A stretch of DNA of 32,000 nucleotides from Bacillota bacterium (GTDB taxonomy: Bacteria; Bacillota; Bacilli; Bacillales; Cytobacillaceae), in contig JAEWIG010000054.1 of assembly GCA_023387295.1 (NCBI GenBank), positions 12,510-44,509 on the forward strand, read 5' to 3'. Below the pieces are notes generated by a model, which did not search any database, had not been told where the DNA came from, and saw only the letters and a program-made list of their open reading frames with translations. Below are positions 2,042-32,000 of the stretch, piece by piece. The position numbers and the translations under genes were made by a program. Positions within the stretch are counted from its first letter, which is position 1; every line of letters begins with the position of its first letter.

Positions 2042-2599
2042 CTAAATCACATTAAAAGCTCTATAATAATCATTTGGCTTCAATTTATCAAATAATTTTG
2101 TATGATGTCCATCAAATACCCCTGGATAGAAAACTAATACTGGAATATCTGAAAAATGTGGTTGTAATGCTTCTAGTAAAGAGTGCACTCTCATAAAAGG
2201 ATATACTTCCCCTACGCCTGTAAGTACTAATACATCACCCATTTCGTGTGGATCATACTGCATCTTATCTATAAAAGCTTGTTCTGTTGCAATGGAATGC
2301 ATTTGATTCAATAAATACTCTTTACCCTTTTTCTCTTCCATCTTTGGAATACTTTTTGTAATACGTTTATCATCACATATGGTAATAAAGGTTTCATATA
2401 AGTTAACAATTCTTAAGTGGCATGTTAAAGAATGATCTGTTTTTATCTGTTCTATGAAATGCCTAATGATCATTTCTTCATTTGGTTCGTAACAAAAGAA
2501 TTGTATATTAACTTCATTACTTAAGCCCTTACCTTCTAAGAAATCTTTACTTTGTATTAATTCTCTTACTTTATCTAAACGAGATTTTATATTCTCCAT
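2042..2599 (-). CDS. brxB: BREX protein BrxB (DUF1788-like)
   Basis: 185 aa. ATG with a GGAGG SD 6 nt upstream. It sits 12 nt after the brxA stop and 13 nt before the brxC start. Size and synteny (brxA-brxB-brxC) fit BrxB. The assignment rests on gene order plus recollection of the family. Confidence 0.75.
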   Translation of the reverse strand: MENIKSRLDKVRELIQSKDFLEGKGLSNEVNIQFFCYEPNEEMIIRHFIEQIKTDHSLTCHLRIVNLYETFITICDDKRITKSIPKMEEKKGKEYLLNQMHSIATEQAFIDKMQYDPHEMGDVLVLTGVGEVYPFMRVHSLLEALQPHFSDIPVLVFYPGVFDGHHTKLFDKLKPNDYYRAFNVI

Positions 2600-2611
2600 C
2601 TCTTACCTCCA

Positions 2612-3217
2612 TCATAGAAAACAATTAAATGCCGGCAATGTTATTTCATCATTATTGCATCTAATTGCATTCTCCAGTGCATTATTGATCAGTACCGGAT
2701 TTAATTGTTGTGCCTTCCCAGAGTCAAGATAATCATTTTCTATCAATATTCTTTTAATCACTGATTTCATTTTTTTGATCGTAGACTCTTTCCACTCTGC
2801 AACAAGATCATCCTGTTCTTGTAAACGCATGAAAAATACATTAATATCCCTATCACTGAAAGCGAAATCCATTTGTCTAAACTTTTCTCCTATCACTGTA
2901 ATCATGAATTCCCACATGATACGATTTTGCTTCATTATTGCATACAAGCATACTTGCTTAGAAACCTCAACGGGTGAATCAGCAACAACCTTTATTAAGT
3001 CCCTATCATCCATTGCATGTAAGCGTTTCAAACATACACTAGCTATATTTTTAAGCATTCTTTCTGTGGGATATTGAAACAAATTTTCACTAAAAACTTT
3101 TAAGATGATTTCTTCATCTGTAAGTCCTTCTGCAATTAATTTTGCAACCGTCCTTGTTTCATAAAACAGAAACTGCTCTCTTGTTAAAGATCCATTATAA
3201 GGTACTGAACTATCCAT
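2612..3217 (-). CDS. brxA: BREX protein BrxA (DUF1819-like)
   Basis: 201 aa, all-helical-looking. It is the first structural gene of the brxA-brxB-brxC series, and its start overlaps the stop of the upstream HTH gene by 8 nt. Size and position fit BrxA. Confidence 0.7.
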   Translation of the reverse strand: MDSSVPYNGSLTREQFLFYETRTVAKLIAEGLTDEEIILKVFSENLFQYPTERMLKNIASVCLKRLHAMDDRDLIKVVADSPVEVSKQVCLYAIMKQNRIMWEFMITVIGEKFRQMDFAFSDRDINVFFMRLQEQDDLVAEWKESTIKKMKSVIKRILIENDYLDSGKAQQLNPVLINNALENAIRCNNDEITLPAFNCFL

Positions 3218-3467
3218 TTTTACGCTTCCCTTCGATGCTTAATTTCATTTGCACTACCTCTTTAGTTTCAGGTAAGATTTCAACTATCTCATCTAAGGTA
3301 CAGTCCATCTTCCTGCATATCCTCACTAGTATTTCCATTGAAACAAATTCGTTATGTGAAAGTTTAGCAAGTGTGTTTTGGCTAATTCCTACAAACGTAG
3401 CAAACTCTGTTTTCTTTAGGTTTTTATCTATTAATAACTTAAATAGTTTGTTGTAGCATACATCCAT
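3210..3467 (-). CDS. Small XRE/Cro-CI-type HTH transcriptional regulator, translationally coupled to brxA
   Basis: 85 aa. LFKLLIDKNLKKTEFATFVGISQNTLAKLSHNEFVSMEILVRICRKMDCTLDEIVE is a classic XRE helix-turn-helix layout. AAGGAGG SD upstream. 8-nt overlap with brxA. Confidence 0.8.
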   Translation of the reverse strand: MDVCYNKLFKLLIDKNLKKTEFATFVGISQNTLAKLSHNEFVSMEILVRICRKMDCTLDEIVEILPETKEVVQMKLSIEGKRKNG

Positions 3468-3497
3468 AATAGTTTGTCCTCCTTATGTTCTTCGGGC

Positions 3498-3521
3498 AAT
3501 ACACTTAATAAGTGTATTATA
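3498..3521 (-). promoter_or_regulatory. Candidate BREX operon promoter -10 box overlapping a 21-bp perfect palindrome (putative operator)
   Basis: AATACACTTA-A-TAAGTGTATT has 10-bp perfect arms (3498-3507 and 3509-3518). On the minus strand an extended -10 (TGATATAAT; TATAAT = 3516-3521) overlaps the right arm. The site lies about 30-50 nt upstream of the HTH gene start. Confidence 0.5.
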
Positions 3522-3799
3522 TCATAGTTAGATGTGAGAATAAAATTATTTTCTTTGTATTTGCAAAGTTTTTTAATATGTATGCGGTGATTTTGTGTTA
3601 ATCTGTTCTGTCATGTTAAGCTATATCTTATCTCATTCTTATTAATTCAACTTTATAAAAAATATGATAATCATCCATTTCAGCAATAAAAAAGAACCAA
3701 AATAGAGAATTACTCCCCCATCTTGATTCATATTGTATTCATCTAATAACACGACGTTTATCATTCTTCTCCCAATCCAAATAAAGGATCCTCAATAAA

Positions 3800-5083
3800 T
3801 TAGTAGAAATCATCCATATTTGCCCGATATTCTGCATCCATCTCTGCCTTAAATTCATGCATTTGATTTAAGCAAGCATCTATATCATCCAGAGCATTAT
3901 TAATAGACTCAAAAAAATTTCCAACATGAATAAAATCAAATCGTTTATTGCTTTTAAAGTAATGTTCCATATTTTTAGAAACTGGATAACGAAACTTACT
4001 AGCATCTGAATCGATATTATGAACTTGCCTACAGTAATCTTCTATAATTCCAAGATATTCTTTATCATCTTCAGATTGAGCATATTCTAATAGAAAAGGC
4101 TCTATCTCATTCCACATACCAGAAATACTATGTTTCCTGTCTAGTAATACTTTACATCTATTTTGAAAATTCTCACCTGTCTCTTCGAACCAAATTGTCT
4201 TCAAACTTAACTCTACACAATTCCGATATAAATAACACATGGGCATAAACAGAAGATTCTTTATTTCATTATTCCCAGCTTCCGTCTTTTTTTTCATATA
4301 CCATTTTAGATAATTTGCTGTCTCATGATAAGCTTTGGTATATGGGTAAAAATCTTCCCTCAGATAGCCATATCCAACTACAGATTGGCTATAATAATAC
4401 CCACCTTCCTCTATAAACATTGGATGTAATTTCTTCCATTCTTCTGCTTCATTTTCGTCTTGTACATACCACTTATCAATAATTTCAAACGCAGCTTCAA
4501 ATTTATTTGCAAACTTCACCAAATCAATATGGGTCTGTTTTTCAAACACTCTTTTTATGTTAAATTGTCCACCTAACCCCCACTCATCCTCTTCCCAATA
4601 GATATGAAATGGATATCGGAAAGAATCCGATTCCTTATCCATAACAGATATATCAGTAAAATATTGTTGTAACCATTCTAACTCTTCCATTGGTCTCAAA
4701 TAGGATGCAACTTGTTCAACTGCTGATAGAATTTTTGATAAATCATGGAAAGTTTCCTTGAGAAATTCCTTACGTTCTTCCCTATCTAGTATATATTTAA
4801 ATCCTAGTGCTTTTAATCCCAACTCAATACTGTGCCTATATAAAAAGGCTAATGAAAAGAAATATGTATCTAGCTGAGCAATGTTTGAATTATCCGTTTC
4901 AAGAAGATAGGATGTAACTAAATGTGCCGCATATTTAAAGTTTCTAGCATATGAATAACATTCTGAGGAAATCTCAGTTGACGCTATAATTCGAACCAAA
5001 TACTCTGAGTGTCTATCAAACTTATCTAATATAGTATCCTTTTCTGGATACATATTAGATAATAATCTTTCTGGTGTGTTCAT
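3800..5083 (-). CDS. Hypothetical 427-aa helical protein made of two tandem homologous domains (unknown family)
   Basis: The track ORF is 464 aa, but ATG 5081-5083 (MNTPERLL...) has a good SD (AGGAGAG) and the upstream extension has none. The two halves align: aa ~40-205 versus ~245-405. Shared motifs are LYRHSIELGLK/LYRNCVELSLK, FHDLSKIL/KHSISGMW and DSFRYP/SKFRYP. Confidence 0.7.
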   Translation of the reverse strand: MNTPERLLSNMYPEKDTILDKFDRHSEYLVRIIASTEISSECYSYARNFKYAAHLVTSYLLETDNSNIAQLDTYFFSLAFLYRHSIELGLKALGFKYILDREERKEFLKETFHDLSKILSAVEQVASYLRPMEELEWLQQYFTDISVMDKESDSFRYPFHIYWEEDEWGLGGQFNIKRVFEKQTHIDLVKFANKFEAAFEIIDKWYVQDENEAEEWKKLHPMFIEEGGYYYSQSVVGYGYLREDFYPYTKAYHETANYLKWYMKKKTEAGNNEIKNLLFMPMCYLYRNCVELSLKTIWFEETGENFQNRCKVLLDRKHSISGMWNEIEPFLLEYAQSEDDKEYLGIIEDYCRQVHNIDSDASKFRYPVSKNMEHYFKSNKRFDFIHVGNFFESINNALDDIDACLNQMHEFKAEMDAEYRANMDDFY

Positions 5084-5240
5084 TGTATTCTCTCCTAATA
5101 TATTCTTATTTAGCAAGCAGGGCAAGGTTGTACACACCTTGCAATTTTGTGCTTGTTGGGGAAGCCCCCAATTCCCTCTATTACCCCAATACATGCATTG
5201 CCATATATCTAAAATATAGTATGTATCACATTAAAATCAT

Positions 5241-8180
5241 TTACAATCTTCTATTTTTTCGAGCACACTCCGTACATACACCAGTATTAACTTTATTAAT
5301 CCCGCCATAACTATTAAAATAATCTACCAATTTTATACCATCACACTCTTTACATTTAACCCAACGTTGTCCACTAGAATCAATGATACATTGTTGTTGC
5401 TGAGTGAACTGGTCTTTCACTTCATTATAACACCTTCTCAGATGTTCTTCTTTGGCCAATTGTCGCTCTCGTTTCTTTTGTTCTTGTGCATCTTGCTCTT
5501 CTCGAATTTTTTCTTCTATCTCTTTCTTAATATCCATTTGTCTATTAATTTCTATTCCAAAGCGTTCACGGTATTCTATTTCCTGCTCATTCAAAATCAC
5601 TGGTGCACTACTAATTATGTAGTTACCAGCTTTATCACTTGATAATACTTGTCTTTCAATAGGTACTATCTCATCGACAAAAGTTGTTTGCTTTTTATCA
5701 TTTGTAAGAACATATAATTTATTTTTAGCTCTTGTCATTGCTACATAAAACAGTCTACGTTCCTCCCGATACTTATCCATAGCACCAGCCGAATCATGAA
5801 TAGTGTTTATATTAACAGATGGGAATACACCATCATATACATCCATTATATAAACTGTATCATATTCTAATCCCTTACTTGAATGAACTGTGGATAAAAT
5901 AATAGTAGCATTTTTTGACGTAGCATTTTTTTCTATCATTTTAGGTAGTTGTTCCAACCGTTTTAAAAATGCAAGTTGTTTTGGCTCTTGTTCTGCTAAT
6001 ATACGTAATAATTCAATTTTACTTTCATCCATAGAATTCTTTTGTAGGTACTGTCCATAACCTTCAGAACAAATATAATTAATTGCAGAAATAGAATTCT
6101 TTCCTTTTAACCTATTTAAAAAAATTTCAAAATCTTCAGCCTTATCTAATAAACTCGGCCAACGTTCTAGTTGCTTTTTCAAAGCATCTGTTACAGAAAT
6201 CCGATTCCAACGGCTATTTTTACATGTCCACTCTGCTGTTTTTTTATTAAAACCATATCCACATTTATAATATATCTTCATAAAAGACTCTGTATCAAAA
6301 GGATCTATAGCAAGCTTCATAAAAGCTTTGATATCATCAACTATTTTATAAGTAAAAAAATTTGTTTTTATTTGTAATACTTTAAATTGAATTTGATTGC
6401 GAATTAATAAATCCATTAAAGGAATCGCAAGATCATTATCACGATATAAAATTGCTGTTTTCTCCTTGTTGTTATAAGCGACATCTAACAAATACTTATA
6501 CTGTTCATAACGATTGGAGAAAGAAACTCTTTCCACTGACTCTCCATGACCTCGATTTGCAACCATCGTCTTCTTATTACGCTTTAAATCATTTTCAATA
6601 AATTTCTGTGCTGTATTAACTATTTCTTCCGTAGAACGATAGTTACACTCCATCATTAGTACAAATGGATTCCTATATTTGTTTTTGAAATTGAGCAATG
6701 CCTTTGGATAAGCACCACGAAATCCATAAATACTTTGATCCTCATCTCCAACCATAAAGATATTGTTATTTCCAGTAAGCATATGGATTATCTTATGTTG
6801 AATTTTAGACGTATCCTGTGCTTCATCAACACAGATATACTTATACTGATTTTGAAATTCGTGAAGTATATCAGGATGTTTCAACAGTATTTGATGGGCA
6901 TATACCATTTGATCATCAAAATCCATAACTTTCTTCTGTCTCAAAGTTTCTTTATATATCTGAAATATTCTCGCAACATTTGGAACAGATGTATCTAACA
7001 TAGTAATTTCATCGTTATTCAACATCATATTTTTTATGTAACCAATTGCAACCTCTGTTTCAATCACATCGCTTTCTGTTGGATATTCATCATTCACTTG
7101 TTTATAAATATTTTTGATAATTTTTGTTCTTTCCTTATTATCAAGCTGATTAAATGGATTACGTGAATACCGGTAGATAATACTGTTACTGATACTATTG
7201 ATAGTCCTAAACTGAACTCTATTTGCAAGTTCTGGACCAAATAGGCTTGAGAAGCGTTTTTTCATATCTTCCGCTGCTGCTGTTGTATAGGTCATTGCCA
7301 AGATGTTATCTGGTGAAATCCCTTTACAAATAATCATGTATCCAAGTCTTACTACAAGCACTGTAGTTTTCCCACTCCCCGGAACTGCAAGCAACAGATT
7401 TGCTCCCTCTACTGCTTGTACCGCTCGTTCCTGTTGCTTATTTAGTGTAATCCAAAATTTCTCAGCAAACATTTTATACATTTGATTTTCGTAGATATCT
7501 TCACGATCCGGGCCTTCACAAATTCCATTTACCAGTCCTAGATACTGCATAAATTCTTCTTTACTAAATCTTTTCGATGTTTTAAATCTTTCAAATCCTT
7601 CGGGTGAAACGTCAACTATCTTCGCAAGACAATCTTCCTCATTATCACGTATCTGAAAAAATAATTCAACCTGCCCACCCAGAAAATCAAAGTTATTAAA
7701 TGTTTTTCGTGGATGTGTCCACTGATAAGATCTACCCTCTTCTCCATCTGTACGTATTAGTTGCCCATTCATATATGCATCAATCTGATCAAATACCCAG
7801 ATTACTTTGTAACCCAGTGATTGATAAAAATTATTTCGATTATTAAACTGTGTAATAGATAAGGAACTATGTTGAAACTCAACGACTGTCCGACCAATCA
7901 ATATATCTGCACGATGTCTTGTTTCCCCCCAATTAAGAATTACTTCCTGATTATTTTTAGGAAATCTACTTTGCCATTCGAAATGCCATGCTGACATATC
8001 ATATTCTCGTTCCCAACTATCAGTACATAAATAGGATGGTTGATGTGAAAAATGATGTTGACGTACCTCACCTTTTCTTTGTATTAAGGGTGCTCCACAA
8101 GATGGGCAGTAATAGTCACGCTTGGTGATTGTATCATCAATAAATATTCTATTGTGATTTTCATCTAATGCTATTAACAT
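5241..8180 (-). CDS. Fusion protein: N-terminal CoiA-like (PD-(D/E)xK-type) nuclease with CxxC finger, UvrD/Rep/PcrA-type SF1 helicase, K/E-rich coiled coil, C-terminal CxxC...CxxC zinc ribbon
   Basis: 979 aa, GGAGG SD. N-terminus: YYCPSCGAPL...HHFSH...HRADILIGRTVVEFQHSSLS...GYKVIWVFD (CoiA-like pattern). Helicase motifs: AVPGSGKTT (I), ICVDEAQD (II), MVGDEDQSIYGFRGA (III), NYRS (IV), TVHSSKGLEYDTVYI (V), LFYVAMTRAKNKLYV (VI). C-terminus: CKECDG...(21 aa)...CTECARK. Confidence 0.85.
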   Translation of the reverse strand: MLIALDENHNRIFIDDTITKRDYYCPSCGAPLIQRKGEVRQHHFSHQPSYLCTDSWEREYDMSAWHFEWQSRFPKNNQEVILNWGETRHRADILIGRTVVEFQHSSLSITQFNNRNNFYQSLGYKVIWVFDQIDAYMNGQLIRTDGEEGRSYQWTHPRKTFNNFDFLGGQVELFFQIRDNEEDCLAKIVDVSPEGFERFKTSKRFSKEEFMQYLGLVNGICEGPDREDIYENQMYKMFAEKFWITLNKQQERAVQAVEGANLLLAVPGSGKTTVLVVRLGYMIICKGISPDNILAMTYTTAAAEDMKKRFSSLFGPELANRVQFRTINSISNSIIYRYSRNPFNQLDNKERTKIIKNIYKQVNDEYPTESDVIETEVAIGYIKNMMLNNDEITMLDTSVPNVARIFQIYKETLRQKKVMDFDDQMVYAHQILLKHPDILHEFQNQYKYICVDEAQDTSKIQHKIIHMLTGNNNIFMVGDEDQSIYGFRGAYPKALLNFKNKYRNPFVLMMECNYRSTEEIVNTAQKFIENDLKRNKKTMVANRGHGESVERVSFSNRYEQYKYLLDVAYNNKEKTAILYRDNDLAIPLMDLLIRNQIQFKVLQIKTNFFTYKIVDDIKAFMKLAIDPFDTESFMKIYYKCGYGFNKKTAEWTCKNSRWNRISVTDALKKQLERWPSLLDKAEDFEIFLNRLKGKNSISAINYICSEGYGQYLQKNSMDESKIELLRILAEQEPKQLAFLKRLEQLPKMIEKNATSKNATIILSTVHSSKGLEYDTVYIMDVYDGVFPSVNINTIHDSAGAMDKYREERRLFYVAMTRAKNKLYVLTNDKKQTTFVDEIVPIERQVLSSDKAGNYIISSAPVILNEQEIEYRERFGIEINRQMDIKKEIEEKIREEQDAQEQKKRERQLAKEEHLRRCYNEVKDQFTQQQQCIIDSSGQRWVKCKECDGIKLVDYFNSYGGINKVNTGVCTECARKNRRL

Positions 8181-11188: not shown

Positions 11189-11398
11189 TTAAAAGTCTGG
11201 ATAAAGATCTAGTGATAAAAACTCCTCCTCTGTCATAGCCTTTAATTTTACAATGGTTGTATTCGTTAACTTTCTTAATTCCACTTCATCCTCTTTTAGA
11301 TACTCTTTCATTTCATTAAGGTTCTGAATTGCTTCCTTCTTTGTGTATGCTGCATAGATGCATATCAAATTTCCTTCTTCAAAGGTGAATTGGCTCAT
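11189..11398 (-). CDS. Transposon-transfer assisting (TTRAP) family small protein
   Basis: 69 aa: MSQFTFEEGNLICIYAAYTKKEAIQNLNEMKEYL...LKAMTEEEFLSLDLYPDF. ATG 11396-11398 is preceded by GGGAGGAAAG. It overlaps the end of the ArdC-like gene by 20 nt. Confidence 0.7.
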   Translation of the reverse strand: MSQFTFEEGNLICIYAAYTKKEAIQNLNEMKEYLKEDEVELRKLTNTTIVKLKAMTEEEFLSLDLYPDF

Positions 11399-13187
11399 TT
11401 TCTTTCCTCCCAGCGATGAGTTCGATCGACTTCTTGGGTGTTTGCACATTAACAGAGGGTTGTAGTTTTTCACGAATTGATTTCTTCTTTTCCTTTTGTT
11501 CTATGTCATCCTTTTTCATTTGCTCCTGCATCAGAAGAGTTTGACTTTGCTCTATACTAACTTCCATTACCGTCATTGTTGGTAAGTTATTAATGATTCC
11601 ATTCAGATTGTTATCGTTTTGCTCTACACTATCTTCCAAATTAAAAAGCGGATTAATCTTTGCATGGAATCCTAAAAGTTTCTGAAAACCAATGCTATCT
11701 ACGTAATAATACGATACAACTTTATGCTCTTGTAAAGCAATGATATCACTTACTGATAAACAATGTCCTGTAAACTCTTTTGGGGGATTGAAATTAAATT
11801 GTTGGTAAATGGCATGTAGTCGCTCATTCGTTGTTGCCTCATCATGAAAGATTCCTTCATATACTTCATGATAATTCATCTCATCTACTTGCAGCCCCAT
11901 CTCTTCTAATCGTTCCAAAGACTCAAATCGATAGTTTCGTAAATTCTCTTCTCGATTTAACTGTAAGATCCGATAAGAATCTGCCCTACTAATTATCTCA
12001 TTCGCTGTTTCCATATCTTCTAATAGTTTATAATTCACTTCTTCCATTCGTTCTGGAGACAGTTCATGGAATGCTAGTATTTCCTCTCTAGCTTCAAGAA
12101 TCGTAAGAGATGGATCATCTAATTGGCCACCATCTAGTTCATGTTTGCTTTCCTTTTCAAAAAATGTATAATCATATCCATCATCTGATTGTTGAATTTG
12201 CAAATAGATAATGTCATCTAGAACATATAATGCCTCCCTTTGATCCATCATTTCCTTTTGCATTTCAACTAAATAGGTATCCACCTCGGTAATAAGCTGA
12301 TTCGCTGTTTGATTAATTAGTTCTAACGATGCTTTCAATTCTAGCAGTTCCTTATCCTTACTCCATGAAGCAATATAACCAAAACTATTTTCATTAGTTT
12401 CAATGCCATAGTAGGCACATACGGTATAAGAAACACTTTCCGCTTCTACTTCCTTGGTTCGTTGATTCTTTATTAACACTTTTATTTGCTCATGGTCCAA
12501 CGTCTGAGCTGGTTCCAAATTTTTATTATGCAATAGGGAGTGTGCAATCTCATGAATCGTAGCAGAGATTGTTTGAACCTCACTCATCCCACTTCGAATT
12601 GCAATTCTTTGTTCAAGCGGACTAAAGTAACCATCCGTACTAGCTTTCATTTCTTCAAATGCAATGGGAACTGGAGATGTTCTCCTTAATGCCTCTATTA
12701 ATTTGGGATAATTATAGACATTCCCCTCTAAGCTAGACACTAACTCAGGCAGAGGTTTTCCTTCTGTTTGACTAACATCAAAAACGGTCACTGGTTTAAA
12801 CATCGGGATTTTTAATTCTACTTCTTCGGTCAAAACTTTTCCTGTGATATCTTTTATTGGCATTCTTGTTACTGGATCTAGTTTTTCTATATCCTTCTTC
12901 GTCTTGTAAGGCGTAGGTGCGATAATCTTGATTCCTTTCTCTCCTTTTCTAACATGCCGTTCAAACTCTTCTTGCCATCTCTGAAATCCAGCAACAAGCG
13001 TTGCATTGGGATTTTGTAAGAAAATCAGGATAGTATTATTCAGCGAATACCTTGGAAACCTTGACATGGTTCTTAGATACTGTTTGTATTTTTCACTTTC
13101 AAATAACTCCTGGATTCCTTTTTCTATTCCATCGGTGATTGCTTTTAAATGTTCCTTTTGTGACTGTCTCCTCTCTTCCAACTTCAT
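11379..13187 (-). CDS. ArdC-like anti-restriction protein: N-terminal ssDNA-binding domain, HExxH metallopeptidase, YodL-like and C-terminal K/E-rich regions
   Basis: 602 aa, AAGAGGTGA SD. RFPRYSLNNTILIFLQNPNATLVAGFQRWQ is the ArdC N-domain signature. HEIAHSLLH is a zincin motif. SYRILQLNREENLRNYRFESLERLEE resembles the YodL-like domain. Confidence 0.8.
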   Translation of the reverse strand: MKLEERRQSQKEHLKAITDGIEKGIQELFESEKYKQYLRTMSRFPRYSLNNTILIFLQNPNATLVAGFQRWQEEFERHVRKGEKGIKIIAPTPYKTKKDIEKLDPVTRMPIKDITGKVLTEEVELKIPMFKPVTVFDVSQTEGKPLPELVSSLEGNVYNYPKLIEALRRTSPVPIAFEEMKASTDGYFSPLEQRIAIRSGMSEVQTISATIHEIAHSLLHNKNLEPAQTLDHEQIKVLIKNQRTKEVEAESVSYTVCAYYGIETNENSFGYIASWSKDKELLELKASLELINQTANQLITEVDTYLVEMQKEMMDQREALYVLDDIIYLQIQQSDDGYDYTFFEKESKHELDGGQLDDPSLTILEAREEILAFHELSPERMEEVNYKLLEDMETANEIISRADSYRILQLNREENLRNYRFESLERLEEMGLQVDEMNYHEVYEGIFHDEATTNERLHAIYQQFNFNPPKEFTGHCLSVSDIIALQEHKVVSYYYVDSIGFQKLLGFHAKINPLFNLEDSVEQNDNNLNGIINNLPTMTVMEVSIEQSQTLLMQEQMKKDDIEQKEKKKSIREKLQPSVNVQTPKKSIELIAGRKENEPIHL

Positions 13188-24768: not shown

Positions 24769-24928
24769 CTTTTTTAATTTTTTTATTTTAATTTATTACT
24801 TGCACAAAATAAAATTAATATAATGTGCTCAATGATTATTTTGGTGATTCGATGGATTTGCTTATATAACGCAACGGCAACTGGAAGTTGAGCTCTAAAG
24901 ATAAAGCTCCTATACAAACTGTAATATT

Positions 24929-25651
24929 CTAATCTTTGAACCTTCCTTCTATAAGACTAATTGCTTCCTTAACAAACTCTTTTAATGCTGATAACTTATC
25001 ATCATTATATCCATAGTATTCATCAACATTATACGGCGACTTTAAACTATACATAGCCTTTATCTTATATTTTTCCATATTTTCTTCTAACCATTTTTTG
25101 TTTGCCTCACGATTATAGATTGAAGATGTTTCATCATTAAGATTTTGCAAGTACAATGACGGGTAATCTTTATTTAGATCCCAACTCCCCTTACCTTTAA
25201 TTTCTTTACTTCCATTGAAATAATGCGGCACTGGCATGAAATTAGAAAAAGAATACATTAAATCAAAGTATTTATCAAATAAGTTTCGTAAATCTTCATA
25301 TCCTTTAAAAATATCATCTAAATATAAATATATTAATTCATTTAAATCATTTCTGTACTTCCCATTTCTAAGCGGTTGATAACAGTTGTCTTTACGTGCA
25401 AGTATTAGCAACTTTGCCACACAAAAGTCTCTAAATGGTATAAAAGCATTAAAAATTGTATCTGCACTAACTGGAATTGGAACGTTATAACATAGTCGAT
25501 ATGCTTCTTTTACTAAATCAGATGAATCTATTTGCTTACAAGGAAGAATTCTATATAGTAAGGCAGCCTCAATTCCACTTTTTCCTTTCAATCCTGGATT
25601 AATGATTGGTATAAGATTCTTTAATTTATTTTCTATTGCACAATTGTTCAT
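24929..25651 (-). CDS. Hypothetical 240-aa protein, no recognisable family (AT-rich cargo cassette)
   Basis: Open frame with ATG 25649-25651 placed 8 nt after AGGAG; the track's GTG 25660 overlaps the SD. It is flanked by roughly 200-bp non-coding regions and has its own terminator. The sequence is visibly more AT-rich than its neighbours. Confidence 0.65.
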   Translation of the reverse strand: MNNCAIENKLKNLIPIINPGLKGKSGIEAALLYRILPCKQIDSSDLVKEAYRLCYNVPIPVSADTIFNAFIPFRDFCVAKLLILARKDNCYQPLRNGKYRNDLNELIYLYLDDIFKGYEDLRNLFDKYFDLMYSFSNFMPVPHYFNGSKEIKGKGSWDLNKDYPSLYLQNLNDETSSIYNREANKKWLEENMEKYKIKAMYSLKSPYNVDEYYGYNDDKLSALKEFVKEAISLIEGRFKD

Positions 25652-25864
25652 TAATTTCACTCCTAACGACTAAAATAAATCTCTACAAATTCAAATTCGT
25701 CTTTCTTATGTATATTAAACACTCAATGCAACCTATTTTCTATTTTTGTACCAGTTAGTTTTTTTGGCCTGAAGTAATTATAAACTGTTTTATCATCATT
25801 TTTAACATAGCTGTATAAAAATATACCTATCCATCAGATATACCTCCACCCAAAAAGCTCCCAC

Positions 25865-27804: not shown

Positions 27805-28734
27805 TTAACGTTCGATATTTTGTTGTCGTTTCTTTTGCCATTGATCCAGTAATTTGATAATGGTTTCCTCCATCTTCTGTGGTGTATAATTCCCAGGAAA
27901 ATACTTTCGTAAAGTATCGTTACTTATCGTAACTTTGATTTGTTCACTTTTCTTTTCCTCTGACATAATCGCTCGCACCACATCGATGGAGAGAGTACCT
28001 TCTTGACTAAACTTCTTAAGTCGTTGTGCCTGAGAGAGTGATGGCGTTGCTTGCTCACTGTCCATGGCATCTAGAAGTTGTTCTTGTTCGTCTTTTTTTA
28101 AGAAGGATAGTTCGTAAGCTGGATTGAAGGCTATCTTCTTGGTGTCTACCATATCAAGGAGGTCATGGATGAGTTCGGTTAGTCTTATGAAACGTTGTAC
28201 TTGATTCCTGCTTGAACCAGATTGTTCCGCAACTATCTCATCTGCACGTAACAACTTCGTCCCAACTTGGGACGAAGTCAAATCATTTCTAATCCCTTGA
28301 TGTTTTAATGCATCAACCTTCATTTTAAAAGCAAATGCCCTCTCACTAGGCAACAAATTCTCTCTCTGCAAATTCGAATCCACCATAATTATGGTAGCTG
28401 CGTCATCATCCAAATCCCGTACAATCACAGGCATTGTCTCTAACCCTGCTAATTCACTTGCCCGATGTCTACGATGACCTGCAATTAATTCATATCCTCC
28501 TTCTTCTCTTGGCCTTGCGATTGCAGGGACCAACACGCCATACTGCTTAACACTTTCTGCTGTATCAAGCATAGATTCATCATCAATCACTTTAAATGGA
28601 TGTTCCCTAAACGGAAATAACTCTGTCAAAGATATCTCCATCACCTTTTCTCGTGTAGCATCGATTCTATTTTCCTCGGTTGTAAATAAGTCATCTACAG
28701 TATTCAACTTTATGTTTTTGACAGAGCTTTTCAC
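27805..28734 (-). CDS. parB: ParB/Spo0J-family partition protein
   Basis: 309 aa. GTG start 7 nt after AAGGAGGTG. ParB box GVLVPAIARPREEGGYELIAGHRRHRASELAG. HTH region after it. Confidence 0.9.
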   Translation of the reverse strand: MKSSVKNIKLNTVDDLFTTEENRIDATREKVMEISLTELFPFREHPFKVIDDESMLDTAESVKQYGVLVPAIARPREEGGYELIAGHRRHRASELAGLETMPVIVRDLDDDAATIIMVDSNLQRENLLPSERAFAFKMKVDALKHQGIRNDLTSSQVGTKLLRADEIVAEQSGSSRNQVQRFIRLTELIHDLLDMVDTKKIAFNPAYELSFLKKDEQEQLLDAMDSEQATPSLSQAQRLKKFSQEGTLSIDVVRAIMSEEKKSEQIKVTISNDTLRKYFPGNYTPQKMEETIIKLLDQWQKKRQQNIER

Positions 28735-29512
28735 CTTGTAACACCTCCTTCGTTAGATTTCTATATGCATCTGCCACCTTTCCTTTAGGATCATGAGCAA
28801 AGATACTTTTCCCAACTGCACTAATTTCAGCTGCTCTTACGGAATGTGGGATATCCGTTTGAAATAATTTAATTGTATTCCCATAAGTTTCTCTAAGAAG
28901 TGTACTAATATCCTTTGCAAAATTAGTCCTATTATCCATCATTGTAATTAGTATACCCTCAATCTTTAGATTCGGATTGATTTGCTTTCTTACTTTACTG
29001 ATTGTCTGTAGCAACTGTTCTAATCCTTTAGCGGACAAGTACTGTGCTTGTACCGGTATTAATATACTATCCGATGCAGCTAACGCATTTACAGTTAACA
29101 TTCCAAGAGATGGCATACAATCTAATAAAATATAATCATACTGACTTCGAACGGTATCAATGTACTGCTTTAAAATTGTTTCCCTACTCATTGTATTTAT
29201 TAGCGATATCTCTGTTCCAGATAGTTCAATGTTAGCCGGTAGTAAGTCAATCCCTTCTTCAAGAGATAAAACACCTTCTCTTCTACCTACTGACATATCA
29301 ACTATTATCTTACCCATAATTGAAGAAAGCGTTGTTTGTAATGTATCTGGCTGTACAAATCCTAAACTAATCGATAAACTACCTTGTGGATCTGTGTCAA
29401 CTAATAAAACTTTCTTCCCTTCCTTAGCTAGTCCAATACCAAGATTGGCACAAGTGGTTGTTTTGCCTACACCACCTTTTTGATTGGCAATGGCGATTAC
29501 TTTTGCATTCAA
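28691..29512 (-). CDS. parA: ParA/Soj-family partition ATPase
   Basis: Deviant Walker A IANQKGGVGKTTT. The start is best placed at TTG 29510-29512, 4-5 nt after GGAGGGAG, giving MNAKVIAIANQKGG... (273 aa). The 329-aa track ORF extends through a terminator and into the upstream gene. Confidence 0.9.
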   Translation of the reverse strand: MNAKVIAIANQKGGVGKTTTCANLGIGLAKEGKKVLLVDTDPQGSLSISLGFVQPDTLQTTLSSIMGKIIVDMSVGRREGVLSLEEGIDLLPANIELSGTEISLINTMSRETILKQYIDTVRSQYDYILLDCMPSLGMLTVNALAASDSILIPVQAQYLSAKGLEQLLQTISKVRKQINPNLKIEGILITMMDNRTNFAKDISTLLRETYGNTIKLFQTDIPHSVRAAEISAVGKSIFAHDPKGKVADAYRNLTKEVLQGEKLCQKHKVEYCR

Positions 29513-29533
29513 TTTACTCCCTCCTCTTTTCAT

Positions 29534-29563
29534 AAAAAAAGAAGCTAACCAATGGCTAACTTC
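29534..29563 (-). terminator. Strong Rho-independent terminator closing the HTH + 375-aa cassette, immediately upstream of the parA SD
   Basis: Minus-strand RNA GAAGUUAGCC-AUU-GGUUAGCUUC (10 bp, two G-U pairs) followed by UUUUUUU. It starts 37 nt after the stop of the 375-aa gene. Confidence 0.65.
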
Positions 29564-29600
29564 AATCTTTTGCTCTAACAAATTATTACTACTTATAGTA

Positions 29601-30728
29601 TTACATCTGTTTTTCATTTTCCAAAAAGTGTAACATAGCTTTTTTATTTTGCTTGGTGAACTCACGTAGATTTTCATCACTAGTTAACTCTATAATTTTA
29701 TTATAGTATTCTATTGTTAGTTCATATTCTTCATTACGGCTATGGGCATCAATTATTATCGAATACAACTCACATATCGTTTCTGTTGCATCTTCATAAA
29801 ACTTCATTAACTTTTTTGCTGTTTCGATTGCTTTATCATTTTCATTAACAGCTGCATACTGATATACTATTGCTTCCAATATATCTTGTACATCACCTTC
29901 TCGTTTTAAAAGTTCCTCAAACACTTTTATTGATTCATCAAAACAGTTTAATTCTCTTAATATAATTCCTCTAGAATACATAAAATCATTACAATTTTTT
30001 TTCTTAATAGCAGTATTAATTAAACACAGTGCTTGATAAACTTCCTCTTCCGATATACTATTTTCAAGTACAGTACTTGCTTTCTTCTCTAAAATGTTTT
30101 CAGACTCATCACAGTCTAATGATTTTGTTAATTTATCCTGATCATATATTGTATTAATGAACCCATTTTCATATTTCTCAATATATTTTACAACCTTTGG
30201 AACAATCTCCATTTTTGCATATTCTGAATCTGCATACCAAAGATTAGATTGTCCCATTCCTCTTCCTTGTCCCTCAACTGATGCTCTTGAGATTACAAAT
30301 GTTCTCTCAACTTCTGGTAATAAGTAAGTATCATCTGCTTTCGCTTTTACTCTGTAATAAAGATTTCTTCCTATTGTAGGAATTGCATCTATCTCTTGTG
30401 CATAACGATAAACAGTAGCATTCTTATACCACCCTACAATAACATGGTTTTCTGAATCATCCGCTTTTGCACACCATACAACTAGAACATTATCTACAAC
30501 TTCAGCACTACCCCTAACTTTCTCAAACCTTTCAATATGGATTTGTCCATCTATATGTACAAATCCATAACAATTATGATTATAATCTTGAAAATTGTAG
30601 ATTTCTCCTACATCTCTTCCATCATTATGCTCTTTTATCCAAGCCCCTCCATATTTACTAACGGTGTCATCATTATCAACACCGCAATAATTAGTCATGT
30701 ATGTAATATTACAAAATAAAATTTTCAT
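29601..30728 (-). CDS. Hypothetical 375-aa protein: beta-rich N-terminal domain (~190 aa) plus helical TPR-like C-terminal repeats; no catalytic motif recognised
   Basis: ATG 30726-30728 (MKILFCNITYMTNYCG...) is preceded by AAAGGA, which overlaps the stop of the upstream HTH gene (5-nt gap). The C-terminal ~150 aa show roughly 34-aa helical repeats (FMYSRGIILRELNCFDESIKVFEELL..., AIVYQYAAVNENDKAIETAKKLM..., LYSIIIDAHSRNEEYELTIEYYNKII...). Confidence 0.7.
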   Translation of the reverse strand: MKILFCNITYMTNYCGVDNDDTVSKYGGAWIKEHNDGRDVGEIYNFQDYNHNCYGFVHIDGQIHIERFEKVRGSAEVVDNVLVVWCAKADDSENHVIVGWYKNATVYRYAQEIDAIPTIGRNLYYRVKAKADDTYLLPEVERTFVISRASVEGQGRGMGQSNLWYADSEYAKMEIVPKVVKYIEKYENGFINTIYDQDKLTKSLDCDESENILEKKASTVLENSISEEEVYQALCLINTAIKKKNCNDFMYSRGIILRELNCFDESIKVFEELLKREGDVQDILEAIVYQYAAVNENDKAIETAKKLMKFYEDATETICELYSIIIDAHSRNEEYELTIEYYNKIIELTSDENLREFTKQNKKAMLHFLENEKQM

Positions 30729-30733
30729 AGTTC

Positions 30734-31282
30734 TCATCCTTTCAATATTCCTGTTATTAAACAAGATAACATATTTGTTCCCTTTTCGAGCGGTGGATGT
30801 TTCATTGGATTATTTTCACTCCACGGTAATTGCACATAAACTACTTCACGACTTCTTTCTTTCACAATGGTTATACAATATGTTTCATCTAATAATACAT
30901 CCAGTATATAAAACAAACTTCCATGTGTAGCTAGTAATTCCTTTTTTATTTCGATAACAGTTCCACATCCTTCTGAAACACAACGGTTCATTGATTCCAA
31001 TAGAAATCCATACTCTTGTTCTCGATACATCTTACTCATCCGCTTTATTCCTTTTCTCTCAAAAACATTAGCTGACTTTGTGTAGCCCAAAGCGCCTTTC
31101 ATCCATTCCAAATCAATATCTAAAATAATCGATATTTTAAAAAGTTCTTCCGTGGAAATCCTGTTATTTTGCAATTTATCATATAATGTCTTAACTGGAA
31201 TATTTAAATCTTTTGCTAGTTGCTCATTACTCTTACCCCGTAATTTTATGTGCTTTTTAATAATTTCTGCTACGTTAAACAA
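30734..31282 (-). CDS. XRE-type HTH protein with an uncharacterised ~110-aa C-terminal domain
   Basis: 182 aa. TTG start 7 nt after AGGAGGTGA. N-terminus IKLRGKSNEQLAKDLNIPVKTLYDKLQNNRISTEELFKISIILDIDLEWM is an HTH. The C-terminal part has no motif I recognise. Confidence 0.75.
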   Translation of the reverse strand: MFNVAEIIKKHIKLRGKSNEQLAKDLNIPVKTLYDKLQNNRISTEELFKISIILDIDLEWMKGALGYTKSANVFERKGIKRMSKMYREQEYGFLLESMNRCVSEGCGTVIEIKKELLATHGSLFYILDVLLDETYCITIVKERSREVVYVQLPWSENNPMKHPPLEKGTNMLSCLITGILKG

Positions 31283-31324
31283 TTCATCACCTCCTGGTAA
31301 ATATATGATAACAAGTAGAGAGAA

Positions 31325-31558
31325 TCACAGCAATCTATAATATTCTGAATTTGTCAGAATATCTACGTTGAAATATTTTGTACAATATAAATAATTTGAT
31401 TCAGTCTCTTTCAAATCATGAATATCCCTCATTGTTGTTCTATTCGAAATCCCGTATTTATCCATAATATCTTGTAATTGAAATTCTCTTCCTTTTTTTT
31501 ATATATACAAGCATTCCGATAATCGTTCTTTCCTTGTTATTTCCTCACTCCCATGCAT
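31325..31558 (-). pseudogene. Possible remnant of a DeoR/HTH_11-type (WYL-regulator-like) N-terminus with an in-frame TAA
   Basis: The minus-strand frame reads MHGSEEITRKERLSECLYI-stop-KKGREFQLQDIMDKYGISNRTTMRDIHDLKETES...RLL-stop. The ERL...ISNRTTMRDI layout is HTH_11-like. The stop (plus 31499-31501) sits at the junction of a TATATAT tract and an A8 tract. There is no SD before the ATG, and no sensor domain follows. Confidence 0.35.
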
Positions 31559-31582
31559 TTTTTAACCCAAATTACTATCCTC

Positions 31583-31612
31583 AGTATACGATACCAAAAG
31601 AACATTGTACAA
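31583..31612 (-). promoter_or_regulatory. Candidate sigma-A promoter facing the HTH cassette
   Basis: On the minus strand: TTGTAC (31607-31612), an 18-nt spacer, then TATACT (31583-31588). Confidence 0.3.
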
Positions 31613-31684
31613 GTTTGGCCCCAATTTTTCATTTTTCATCCCACTTAAACTTCTAAAACCCCTTATAAATCAAGGCTTTCAGTC

Positions 31685-31723
31685 TGGCTCCAGCACCTCC
31701 AATTTGGCTCCAATTTGGCTCCA
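31685..31723. repeat. Cluster of three direct TGGCTCCA motifs including a perfect 11-bp tandem (AATTTGGCTCC x2, 31701-31722)
   Basis: TGGCTCCA occurs at 31685-31692, 31705-31712 and 31716-31723. The last two are spaced exactly one helical turn apart. Confidence 0.7.
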
Positions 31724-31801
31724 AACCCCTATCTAAAACCCCATTTTTACCCCATATTTTATGATATTTTACGATACTTTACAGTAACCAATCTGAAAAC
31801 T

Positions 31802-31840
31802 AAAAAAGCCGCAACCCCTTATAAATACTGGGCTCACGGC
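31802..31840 (-). terminator. Candidate Rho-independent terminator for transcription entering from the right edge
   Basis: Minus-strand RNA GCCGUGAGCCC-AGUAUUUAUAA-GGGGUUGCGGC (7 bp including two G-U pairs, one mismatch, then 3 G-C pairs) followed by UUUUUU. The plus-strand version has C-A mismatches instead. Confidence 0.5.
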
Positions 31841-31947
31841 ACTTTTTTTAAAGTTCATAAGGTGTAACTTGATAAACATAATAAGCGGAATGTGGGGAAA
31901 TTGGAGTTGTGAGGAGCCCTATATTTATCGTACTTTCAGAAGTTTCT

Positions 31948-31987
31948 TGGCTCCAAATTTTCCATTTTGGCTCCAAAACTGGCTCCA
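31948..31987. repeat. Second cluster of three direct TGGCTCCA motifs
   Basis: TGGCTCCA occurs at 31948-31955, 31968-31975 and 31980-31987. An inverted core (GGAGCC) lies at 31913-31918. Separately, AACCCCTTATAAAT repeats at 31657-31670 and 31813-31826, and TCTAAAACCCC repeats at 31652-31662 and 31732-31742. Confidence 0.7.
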
Positions 31988-32000
31988 TTTTTAATTTGAC

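Follow-up and report, generated by a model that had tools for sequence, protein, structure and literature searches.

Two adjacent minus-strand genes were analysed in a 32,000-nt stretch of contig JAEWIG010000054.1 from a Bacillota bacterium (the window, as the whole stretch is called below). The first gene encodes a 182-aa helix-turn-helix (HTH) protein, and the second encodes a 375-aa protein composed of a beta-rich N-terminal domain (the N-domain) and tetratricopeptide-type repeats (TPR). It was concluded that the two genes almost certainly constitute an autonomous cassette. The host element is a Clostridia-type integrative and conjugative element (ICE), in which the cassette occupies a variable slot between the integrase gene and parAB, and the cassette is most probably neither a component nor a regulator of the partition system. 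The N-domain belongs to a large, unannotated and so far unnamed family, and the cassette carries a nuclease-free derivative. We proposed, with confidence falling a little short of even, that the cassette is a mobile and self-regulated cargo in which a repressor is combined with a Type IV-type recognition domain on a TPR scaffold, and that it would be used for sensing invaders.

The gene pair as a mobile unit

The first-pass annotation of the window had described the pair as an autonomous module inserted ahead of the partition genes, and the insertion of such a module was upheld. DNA homology to a 72%-identical pair in the unrelated surroundings of locus L006 covered window positions 31364..29658 only, corresponding to an 82 bp leader and the two genes, and stopped at the ends of the unit. 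No third open reading frame (ORF) was found within these boundaries. The GC content of the cassette was 0.28-0.33 versus 0.35-0.42 for the par and type IV secretion system (T4SS) backbone, and a conserved candidate promoter with an operator-like palindrome was located inside the unit. From one genome to the next, the pair had different neighbours, which included glutamine synthetase, UDP-galactopyranose mutase (GLF), a WYL regulator, a D5 primase and a GNAT protein.

The association of the two genes was surveyed from both sides. Among 80 genome loci encoding the N-domain-TPR protein, a homologue of the HTH partner was located immediately upstream in 22, the distance across the junction ranging from -20 to +5 nt. 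Another group of about 20 loci encoded a small HTH-like protein, a superfamily 2 (SF2) helicase and the N-domain-TPR protein, and the remaining copies were solo or truncated. The tree of the N-domain-TPR protein tracked the partner type. When three HTH-partner clusters were sampled on long contigs, the N-domain-TPR gene followed immediately downstream in all three (3/3), and the neighbours of these pairs were RloB/AAA_21, Mrr_cat and AAA_13. The pairwise distances of the two proteins were strongly correlated (r = 0.935; Mantel test, 0/5000). Because the pairing was recovered from both survey sides and the distances were correlated, the HTH partner was regarded as dedicated to the N-domain-TPR protein. 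Independent occurrence of the two genes, raised in the first pass as a point against a unit, was found in one direction: the 375-aa type existed also solo or with the helicase, but no HTH partner lacking it was encountered.

The HTH protein and the gene junction

The only usable in-frame start of the first gene was TTG 31282. ATG 31287 and GTG 31290 were rejected as starts, being located in another frame that runs into a stop codon. The strong Shine-Dalgarno sequence claimed for this gene was confirmed as AGGAGGTGA, placed 5 nt before the TTG codon. Translational coupling of the two genes was likewise borne out by the junction, where the TGA stop codon (30734-30736) is abutted by AAAGGA and a 5-nt gap separates the latter from ATG 30728.

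The 182-aa protein (isoelectric point 8.8) matched HTH_3 with 24.8 bits (cut-off 23) and Phage_CI_repr with 24.6 bits (cut-off 22; E 3e-5). By its HTH_3-type domain and the covarying operator-like palindrome described below, it was classified as an HTH regulator of the Xre/cI type with predicted DNA binding. The family comprised 136 clusters, each of 150-216 aa. The extra domain noticed in the first pass was found to extend for ~120 residues beyond the HTH and to be family-specific, and no Pfam or PDB match was obtained for it. A PD-(D/E)xK-like motif (LLDVL...ER.K) in this C-terminal domain was considered and discarded, as its acidic and lysine positions were unconserved, including in the window protein. 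A search of PADLOC-DB v2 with the 182-aa protein returned only a weak match of the HTH region to RmrA (E 3.6e-4).

Candidate promoter and operator of the cassette

The leader of the cassette contains a candidate sigma-70 promoter and an operator-like palindrome (Table 1). The palindrome was conserved in L006 and L001, and the L006 equivalent of the promoter was TTGTTA-17-TATCAT. An overlapping promoter-scan match, TAGATA-17-TATTAT at 31365-31337, scored 9/12. The number of promoter-like sites in the region was 14 versus 16.8 expected from shuffles. The promoter proposed in the first pass at 31583-31612 was a 9/12 consensus match located outside the conserved unit and was abandoned.

Perfect inverted repeats with arms of at least 8 bp were present in 21 of 27 HTH-partner loci versus 4% of shuffles, and the upstream palindromes were mostly placed ~58-94 nt before the start codon. 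Imperfect palindromes were recognised by eye in 5 of the remaining 6 loci. The half-site varied with the clade (ATTCTGA, AATCTTA, AATTCTTAA or AATCCAA), and the clade-covarying palindromes were therefore taken to reflect the co-evolution of a dimeric repressor and the operator of its own gene. Judging from these sequence patterns, the HTH protein very probably autoregulates the cassette. Within the 32-kb window the operator was present in one copy, even when 2 mismatches were allowed. Since it is single-copy, no sign of HTH protein control over the par or transfer genes was seen in the window.

An HTH gene placed first, a coupled junction, a palindrome at the promoter of the pair and strict co-inheritance together resemble the type II layout of HipBA, and the best, non-significant PDB sequence match of the HTH protein was HipB. 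These features would fit an addiction (toxin-antitoxin-like) module stabilising its carrier element, in this case the ICE: the 375-aa protein would act as the toxin and the HTH protein as an antitoxin that represses its own synthesis. Mobility across unrelated contexts would be accounted for as well, as would the position next to the par genes, which are also maintenance functions. However, no known toxin fold or toxin-family match was found for the 375-aa protein, and the other contexts of the N-domain are restriction enzymes. Moreover, the 375-aa type occurs solo in Clostridium genomes with no antitoxin-like neighbour, which is at odds with toxicity. We considered an addiction module unlikely.

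The 375-aa protein

The mechanical ORF of the second gene encodes 387 aa from TTG 30764. Because all homologues start at MKILFCN, the 375-aa product (30728..29601) was taken as the correct one. A public call, P0001 (365 aa, 29601-30698), begins at MTNYCG, 10 codons late, and thereby drops the conserved first beta strand MKILFCN; the 375-aa call is present as P0382.

An AlphaFold2 model was built from 112 homologues with a predicted local distance difference test score (pLDDT) of 95 and a predicted template modelling score (pTM) of 0.91. In this model, a beta-rich part (residues 1-~190) is followed by nine TPR-type helices (~197-375), with a pLDDT of ~98 for the helices within residues 210-374. 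The TPR part matched consensus TPR (CTPR) and MamA in a Foldseek search (E 2e-5, template modelling (TM) score to target 0.7), and Pfam TPR matches in the protein were below the curated cut-offs only. The architecture read from the sequence in the first pass, a beta-rich N-domain joined to TPR-like repeats, was thus upheld by the AlphaFold2 model and Foldseek, and the C-terminal part was assigned to the TPR. The net charge of the TPR part is -16, the median across 153 family members being -15.

A profile that included the TPR columns was swamped by TPR matches. No match to the N-domain was found in Pfam, NCBIfam or PADLOC, and profile comparisons with PDB sequences and with Pfam yielded no consistent match even when E values up to 10 were admitted. 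A separate N-domain model reached a pLDDT of 89. Its top weak Foldseek matches were YTH and EVE domains (E 0.8-1, TM 0.2-0.3), and EVE, SRA and ASCH proteins were present among the weak viral matches of the N-domain. These non-significant fold matches of the model hint at a PUA-like barrel. In agreement with the first pass, in which no family could be assigned, the 375-aa protein matched no characterised family.

The N-domain family in other proteins

A scan of 1.84 billion representative proteins with the N-domain alone recovered at least 1617 representative clusters (50% identity) of the N-domain family at E <= 1e-3. The architectures were then examined in 75 members whose length or layout departs from the TPR type. 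NOV_C/DUF3883 was found in 22 of these members, HNH-type domains in 18 (8 HNH_2, 8 HNH and 2 HNH_5), and a bacterial SRA domain in 2. The fusions seen included X + N-domain + HNH_2 and DUF4268 + N-domain + HNH, and one N-domain-HNH relative is WP_228267298.1 from Acinetobacter. Protein P0210 consisted of HSDR_N (a weak match) and the N-domain, and P0255 of EVE, the N-domain and AAA_5/McrB_lid, with an McrC gene following and cas9 adjoining. In YenY4I and McaZI, two modification-dependent enzymes that have been tested, DUF3883 is the PD-(D/E)XK domain responsible for catalysis (PMC6765204). Because of these fusion architectures and the catalytic role of DUF3883, the N-domain was placed where EVE, SRA, DUF3427 or the McrB N-domain stands in Type IV enzymes.

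The signature residues of the family, many of them aromatic (Y14, F46, Y54, W85, G99-W100-Y101, R142 and W164), were conserved in both TPR-type and nuclease-type members, and all were kept in the window protein. The N-domain was labelled reader-like because of the architecture association and the shared signature residues, that is, through guilt by association. On such grounds it probably has a role in nucleic-acid recognition. The first-pass impression of a PUA-like reader module of modification-dependent nucleases held in part: the reader position was supported by the fusion architectures, and for the putative PUA-like fold the best, non-significant Foldseek E value was 0.8, with YTH and EVE ranking first.

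Several other leads concerning the family were not retained. Protein P0205 (SRA + N-domain, no nuclease) was set aside as a counter-example, since its gene extends to the edge of a contig of just 1.6 kb and is probably incomplete. A phage origin of the N-domain was rejected with just 14 matches in 2.9 million viral contigs, and kinship to the END nucleases was dismissed because those use an inactive EndoIII as the sensor (PMC12191111). No description of the N-domain family, the HTH pair or the helicase-linked sister system was found in the libraries or literature searched.

Beside the aromatic residues, the polar residues N7, D21, E42, N45, R108 and R142 were conserved, and stand-alone N-domain proteins were encoded in L036, L042 and L070. 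Both observations could point to an N-domain that is itself catalytic, for instance an enzyme acting on modified bases, while the TPR would be a sensor binding an invader protein. TPR arrays are sensors in other conflict systems, and a TPR-S model matched 2 family members. However, in the HNH, NOV_C and McrB fusions the N-domain replaces EVE, SRA or DUF3427 beside a catalytic domain that is already present (PMC6765204). A second catalytic domain in such fusions would be unusual, and no enzyme fold was recovered in the fold searches. A catalytic N-domain was judged to be quite improbable.

The hairpin ahead of parA and the cargo slot

The terminator with a 10-bp stem reported directly against parA was confirmed as GAAGTTAGCC-ATT-GGTTAGCTTC (29563-29541) followed by T7 (29540-29534). 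The TTG 29512 start of parA lies 21 nt past the T-run. The folding energy of the hairpin corresponded to a z-score of -2.2 to -2.9, and it was the only terminator-like site in 28600-32000, where 1.2 are expected from shuffles. The significance of the hairpin was therefore drawn from its position and its conservation in sister elements, not from its rarity.

For the sister comparison, 80 metagenomic loci with a ParA 65-78% identical were used. Folding of 11 sister par loci revealed a hairpin and U-run at this place in 10, with ParA 73-78% identical and with any cargo. These structures sit 20-35 nt ahead of the parA start (L086-L094, L097), and the stems of L093 and L097 were homologous to the window stem, with paired substitutions. 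The hairpin of the window lies outside the DNA homology to L006. The terminator could not be kept as a part of the cassette, since a hairpin and U-run occupy the same place in sister ICEs whose cargo is different. It belongs to the ICE backbone, where it would insulate the par operon or attenuate entry into it, and it would act here as the cassette terminator. Transcription of parA might come about by read-through, by attenuation or from a promoter further upstream; a weak TTGGAA-18-TACTAT match (29624-29595) overlaps the 3' end of the 375-aa gene.

The HTH partner was present in none of the 80 sister parA loci, and an N-domain gene of any kind in one (L106). The slot of L106 (603-3305, minus strand) contains a GmrSD Type IV enzyme (561 aa) adjoining an N-domain-NOV_C protein (329 aa); this N-domain gene is a nuclease fusion on the opposite strand. 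The cargo found in the slot elsewhere included the TOTE conflict system (L111), an AAA ATPase with an S8 protease (L097), a UvrD helicase with an N6 methylase (L093) and a transposase (L087). Because the upstream cargo differs from locus to locus, the integrase-to-parA slot was regarded as a defence-rich cargo hotspot. A regulatory or sensing role of the pair for the par operon was not supported, with the HTH partner missing from all 80 sister loci and the operator found, within the 32 kb, only at the promoter of the cassette. Nor was the cassette a part of the par operon in all related ICEs, given the same count and the variable upstream content.

The location between the integrase gene and the parAB-T4SS genes, with one strand used throughout, the pairing of a cI-type HTH with a TPR protein and the lack of promoter space for parA after the hairpin could still be explained by a regulator-sensor pair of the ICE. 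The HTH protein would then repress the par or transfer genes and the TPR protein would relieve the repression on a signal, as in RRNPP or ImmR/ImmA. Against this stand the sister par loci, with no HTH partner and one N-domain gene among them, and the operator, which within 32 kb is found solely at the cassette promoter. The pair also occurs beside housekeeping genes outside ICEs, a terminator precedes parA as a hairpin shared by sister ICEs with unrelated cargo, and neither an ImmA-like peptidase nor a signalling-peptide gene was found. We considered such a regulatory pair very unlikely.

Proposed mode of action

For the favoured reading, a mobile and self-regulated cargo, the following sequence of events was proposed. 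The repressor encoded by the first gene would bind, presumably as a dimer, to the palindrome at its own promoter, and its private C-terminal domain may contact the product of the second gene. The N-domain would recognise invading, probably modified, nucleic acid. The acidic TPR would link this recognition to other proteins, which could be the basic HTH protein, a protein of the invader or host, or both; the private C-terminal domain of the HTH protein would be the most plausible contact. The output would be independent of a nuclease and might consist of derepression and amplification of the module, for example by co-repressor titration. Invader DNA or proteins might also, or instead, be blocked, occupied or sequestered.

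A defence setting is provided by the cargo of the sister slots, by the neighbours of other copies of the pair (RloB/AAA_21, Mrr_cat and AAA_13) and by further genes of this ICE, which encode BrxA/BrxB, a HEPN protein and a UvrD-CoiA nuclease-helicase. The arguments for and against a defence role of the cassette appeared evenly balanced to us. That the output takes the specific form outlined above is doubtful. It is similarly doubtful that the cassette is a nuclease-free Type IV offshoot whose undescribed reader detects modified invader DNA and either signals through the acidic TPR to the repressor or silences or sequesters the invader.

Several observations weigh against the proposed sensing cargo. 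The correlated distances of the two proteins may reflect co-inheritance only, and the HTH partner is not essential to the function of the 375-aa protein, given its solo and helicase-linked copies. The 375-aa protein as a whole is strongly acidic (net charge ~ -23), which DNA-binding proteins usually are not, and the median charge of the N-domain is -4 in TPR-type members versus +1.3 in the nuclease fusions. With this greater acidity, nucleic-acid binding by TPR-type N-domains could be weakened or lost. The N-domain model had no significant structural match in the fold searches, no nuclease or other effector domain was detected in either cassette protein with Pfam, NCBIfam or PADLOC, and the 375-aa protein gave 0 matches in PADLOC-DB v2.

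The extreme and conserved acidity, together with homology to a reader module but no nuclease, would also suit an anti-restriction decoy, in which a nuclease-less reader with a DNA-like acidic tail shields the ICE DNA or titrates the Type IV enzymes of the recipient. The presence of BrxA/BrxB (BREX methylates DNA) and of an ArdC-like anti-restriction protein in the ICE is consistent with such a role. However, most copies are chromosomal or located in defence islands, not on conjugative elements, and tight autorepression at the integrase-proximal end is unlike the usual early-expressed leading region. The helicase-linked sister system, in addition, appears active. A decoy was regarded as highly improbable.

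Comparison with known systems

Type IV systems are defined by a specificity domain for modified DNA and an endonuclease (PMC11090510). The N-domain family holds the specificity position of such enzymes (EVE-HNH VcaM4I, DUF3427-DUF3883 McaZI/YenY4I, SRA-HNH and McrBC), but the window protein has a TPR array where the nuclease sits, and its partner is a repressor rather than a nuclease or GTPase. In contrast to the readers of Type IV enzymes, the N-domain has no sequence match to a described reader family and no significant fold match. The cassette was not classed as a Type IV enzyme because no endonuclease domain was found in the protein or its partner with Pfam, NCBIfam or PADLOC.

With HipBA, CapH/CapP and ImmR/ImmA the cassette shares an Xre-type HTH gene in the first position, coupling, a palindrome at its own promoter and co-inheritance. 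It differs from them in the second protein, which has no kinase, toxin or metallopeptidase domain, and in the C-terminal domain of the HTH protein, which is family-specific and unmatched. In RRNPP systems (Rap/PlcR/PrgX/AimR), an HTH and a TPR are likewise encoded together in a self-contained form on a mobile element. However, in the cassette the HTH and TPR belong to separate polypeptides, a beta-rich domain of the restriction type is attached to the TPR, and neither a signalling-peptide gene within the cassette nor an operator elsewhere in the window was found.

Hotspots of defence cargo in ICEs are established for SXT-type elements (survey PMC10201445). There too, a fixed backbone position, here integrase to parA, receives alternative cargo. 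In contrast to those elements, the present one is a Clostridia-type ICE, and the slot boundary is a conserved hairpin and U-run before the parA ribosome-binding site.

In the sister three-gene system, the N-domain-TPR gene is preceded by genes for a small HTH-like protein of ~165 aa and for an ~880-aa SF2 helicase whose C-terminal domain is YgjP/DUF45-like. It was found in loci L026, L027, L041, L043, L049, L051-L053, L057, L062-L069, L074, L077 and L078, in hosts including Selenomonas, Phascolarctobacterium, Ruminococcus and Jutongia. The first two genes were fused in L067, and an N-domain-helicase fusion was seen in L081. The same N-domain-TPR type as the last gene, an HTH-containing first gene and a self-contained form in varied contexts are common to both systems, whereas the helicase-peptidase-like protein is missing from the window cassette. 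The HTH proteins upstream in the two systems were not accepted as homologues, since hhalign gave a probability of 1.6% and aligned the HTH alone. Comparison of the three-gene system with PADLOC gave only generic helicase similarity, to PbeA and to Type IV/Type I R subunits.

Locus layout and other features of the window

The features of the locus are collected in Table 1. On the minus strand, a ~700-bp non-coding stretch with repeats is followed by the 182-aa gene, the 375-aa gene, the hairpin with T7 and parA. Beyond parA, parB, a DUF6017 protein gene and the conjugation genes are located on the same strand. The integrase gene lies just past window position 32000, as read from the identical element L002.

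Table 1. Coordinates of the cassette and the adjoining features in the window
Feature	Position	Strand	Basis or remark
Operator-like perfect inverted repeat ATATTCTGA-N5-TCAGAATAT	31340..31362	.	sequence; 58 nt upstream of HTH start
Candidate sigma-70 promoter TTGCTG (31328-31333), 17-nt spacer, TATCAT (31305-31310)	31305..31333	-	consensus match
Shine-Dalgarno AGGAGGTGA of HTH gene	31287..31295	-	identical in L006
HTH partner gene, 182 aa, TTG start	30734..31282	-	HTH_3, residues 8-60
AAAGGA ribosome-binding site of second gene	30737..30742	-	abuts stop codon of first gene
N-terminal beta-rich domain, aa 1-195 of 375-aa protein	30144..30728	-	AlphaFold2 model, family scan
C-terminal TPR array, aa 196-375, plus stop codon	29601..30143	-	AlphaFold2 model, Foldseek
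Terminator-like hairpin, 10-bp stem, 3-nt loop, T7	29534..29563	-	folding; ICE backbone feature
parA, 273 aa, TTG start, first backbone gene downstream	28691..29512	-	AAA_31, E 1e-60

Six exact copies of TGGAGCCA were found on the minus strand at 31685-31987 versus 0.61 expected. They are grouped in threes at 31685-31723 and 31948-31987, some of them spaced by 11 bp, and fall outside the mobile unit, in the interval that separates the cassette from the integrase gene. Arm-type recombinase sites are one possible interpretation of this array, iteron or parS-like sites another. A 46-aa ORF at 31325-31465 (minus strand) matched weakly the second half of HTH_11 (E 0.047) and appears to be left over from a WYL/DeoR-type regulator; in L018 and L023, the pair has a divergent WYL-WCX regulator upstream that is intact.

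A second cargo region was found at the opposite end of the window (2042-8180). It encodes BrxB (2042-2599), BrxA (2612-3217), a HEPN-domain protein (3800-5194) and a UvrD helicase of 979 aa with an N-terminal CoiA-type nuclease domain (5241-8180). A 602-aa polyvalent protein (11379-13187), which begins with an ArdC domain and also contains a DUF6782 metallopeptidase, LPD16 and YodL, is likely an anti-restriction or establishment protein of the ICE. A second patch of low GC content (0.28-0.29) at 24800-25800 spans an unannotated ORF at 24929-25660 and could mark a further short insert within the backbone.

Implications

The hairpin-bounded slot between the integrase gene and parA offers a practical handle for mining more defence systems. 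To our knowledge, every new reader family so far has brought new modification specificities. New readers are useful for understanding the arms race between phages and hosts and as epigenetic tools, and the relatives of the N-domain-HNH and N-domain-NOV_C types are enzymes open to direct testing. If the proposal is true, the reader family would also define new modification-dependent nucleases (N-domain-HNH, -NOV_C and -McrB), possibly with new specificities. The presence of a reader in a nuclease-free, repressor-bearing module would broaden the range of outputs to which modification sensing is coupled, and the cassette would then represent an immune sensor that responds to the epigenetic marks of foreign DNA with a transcriptional or steric effect.

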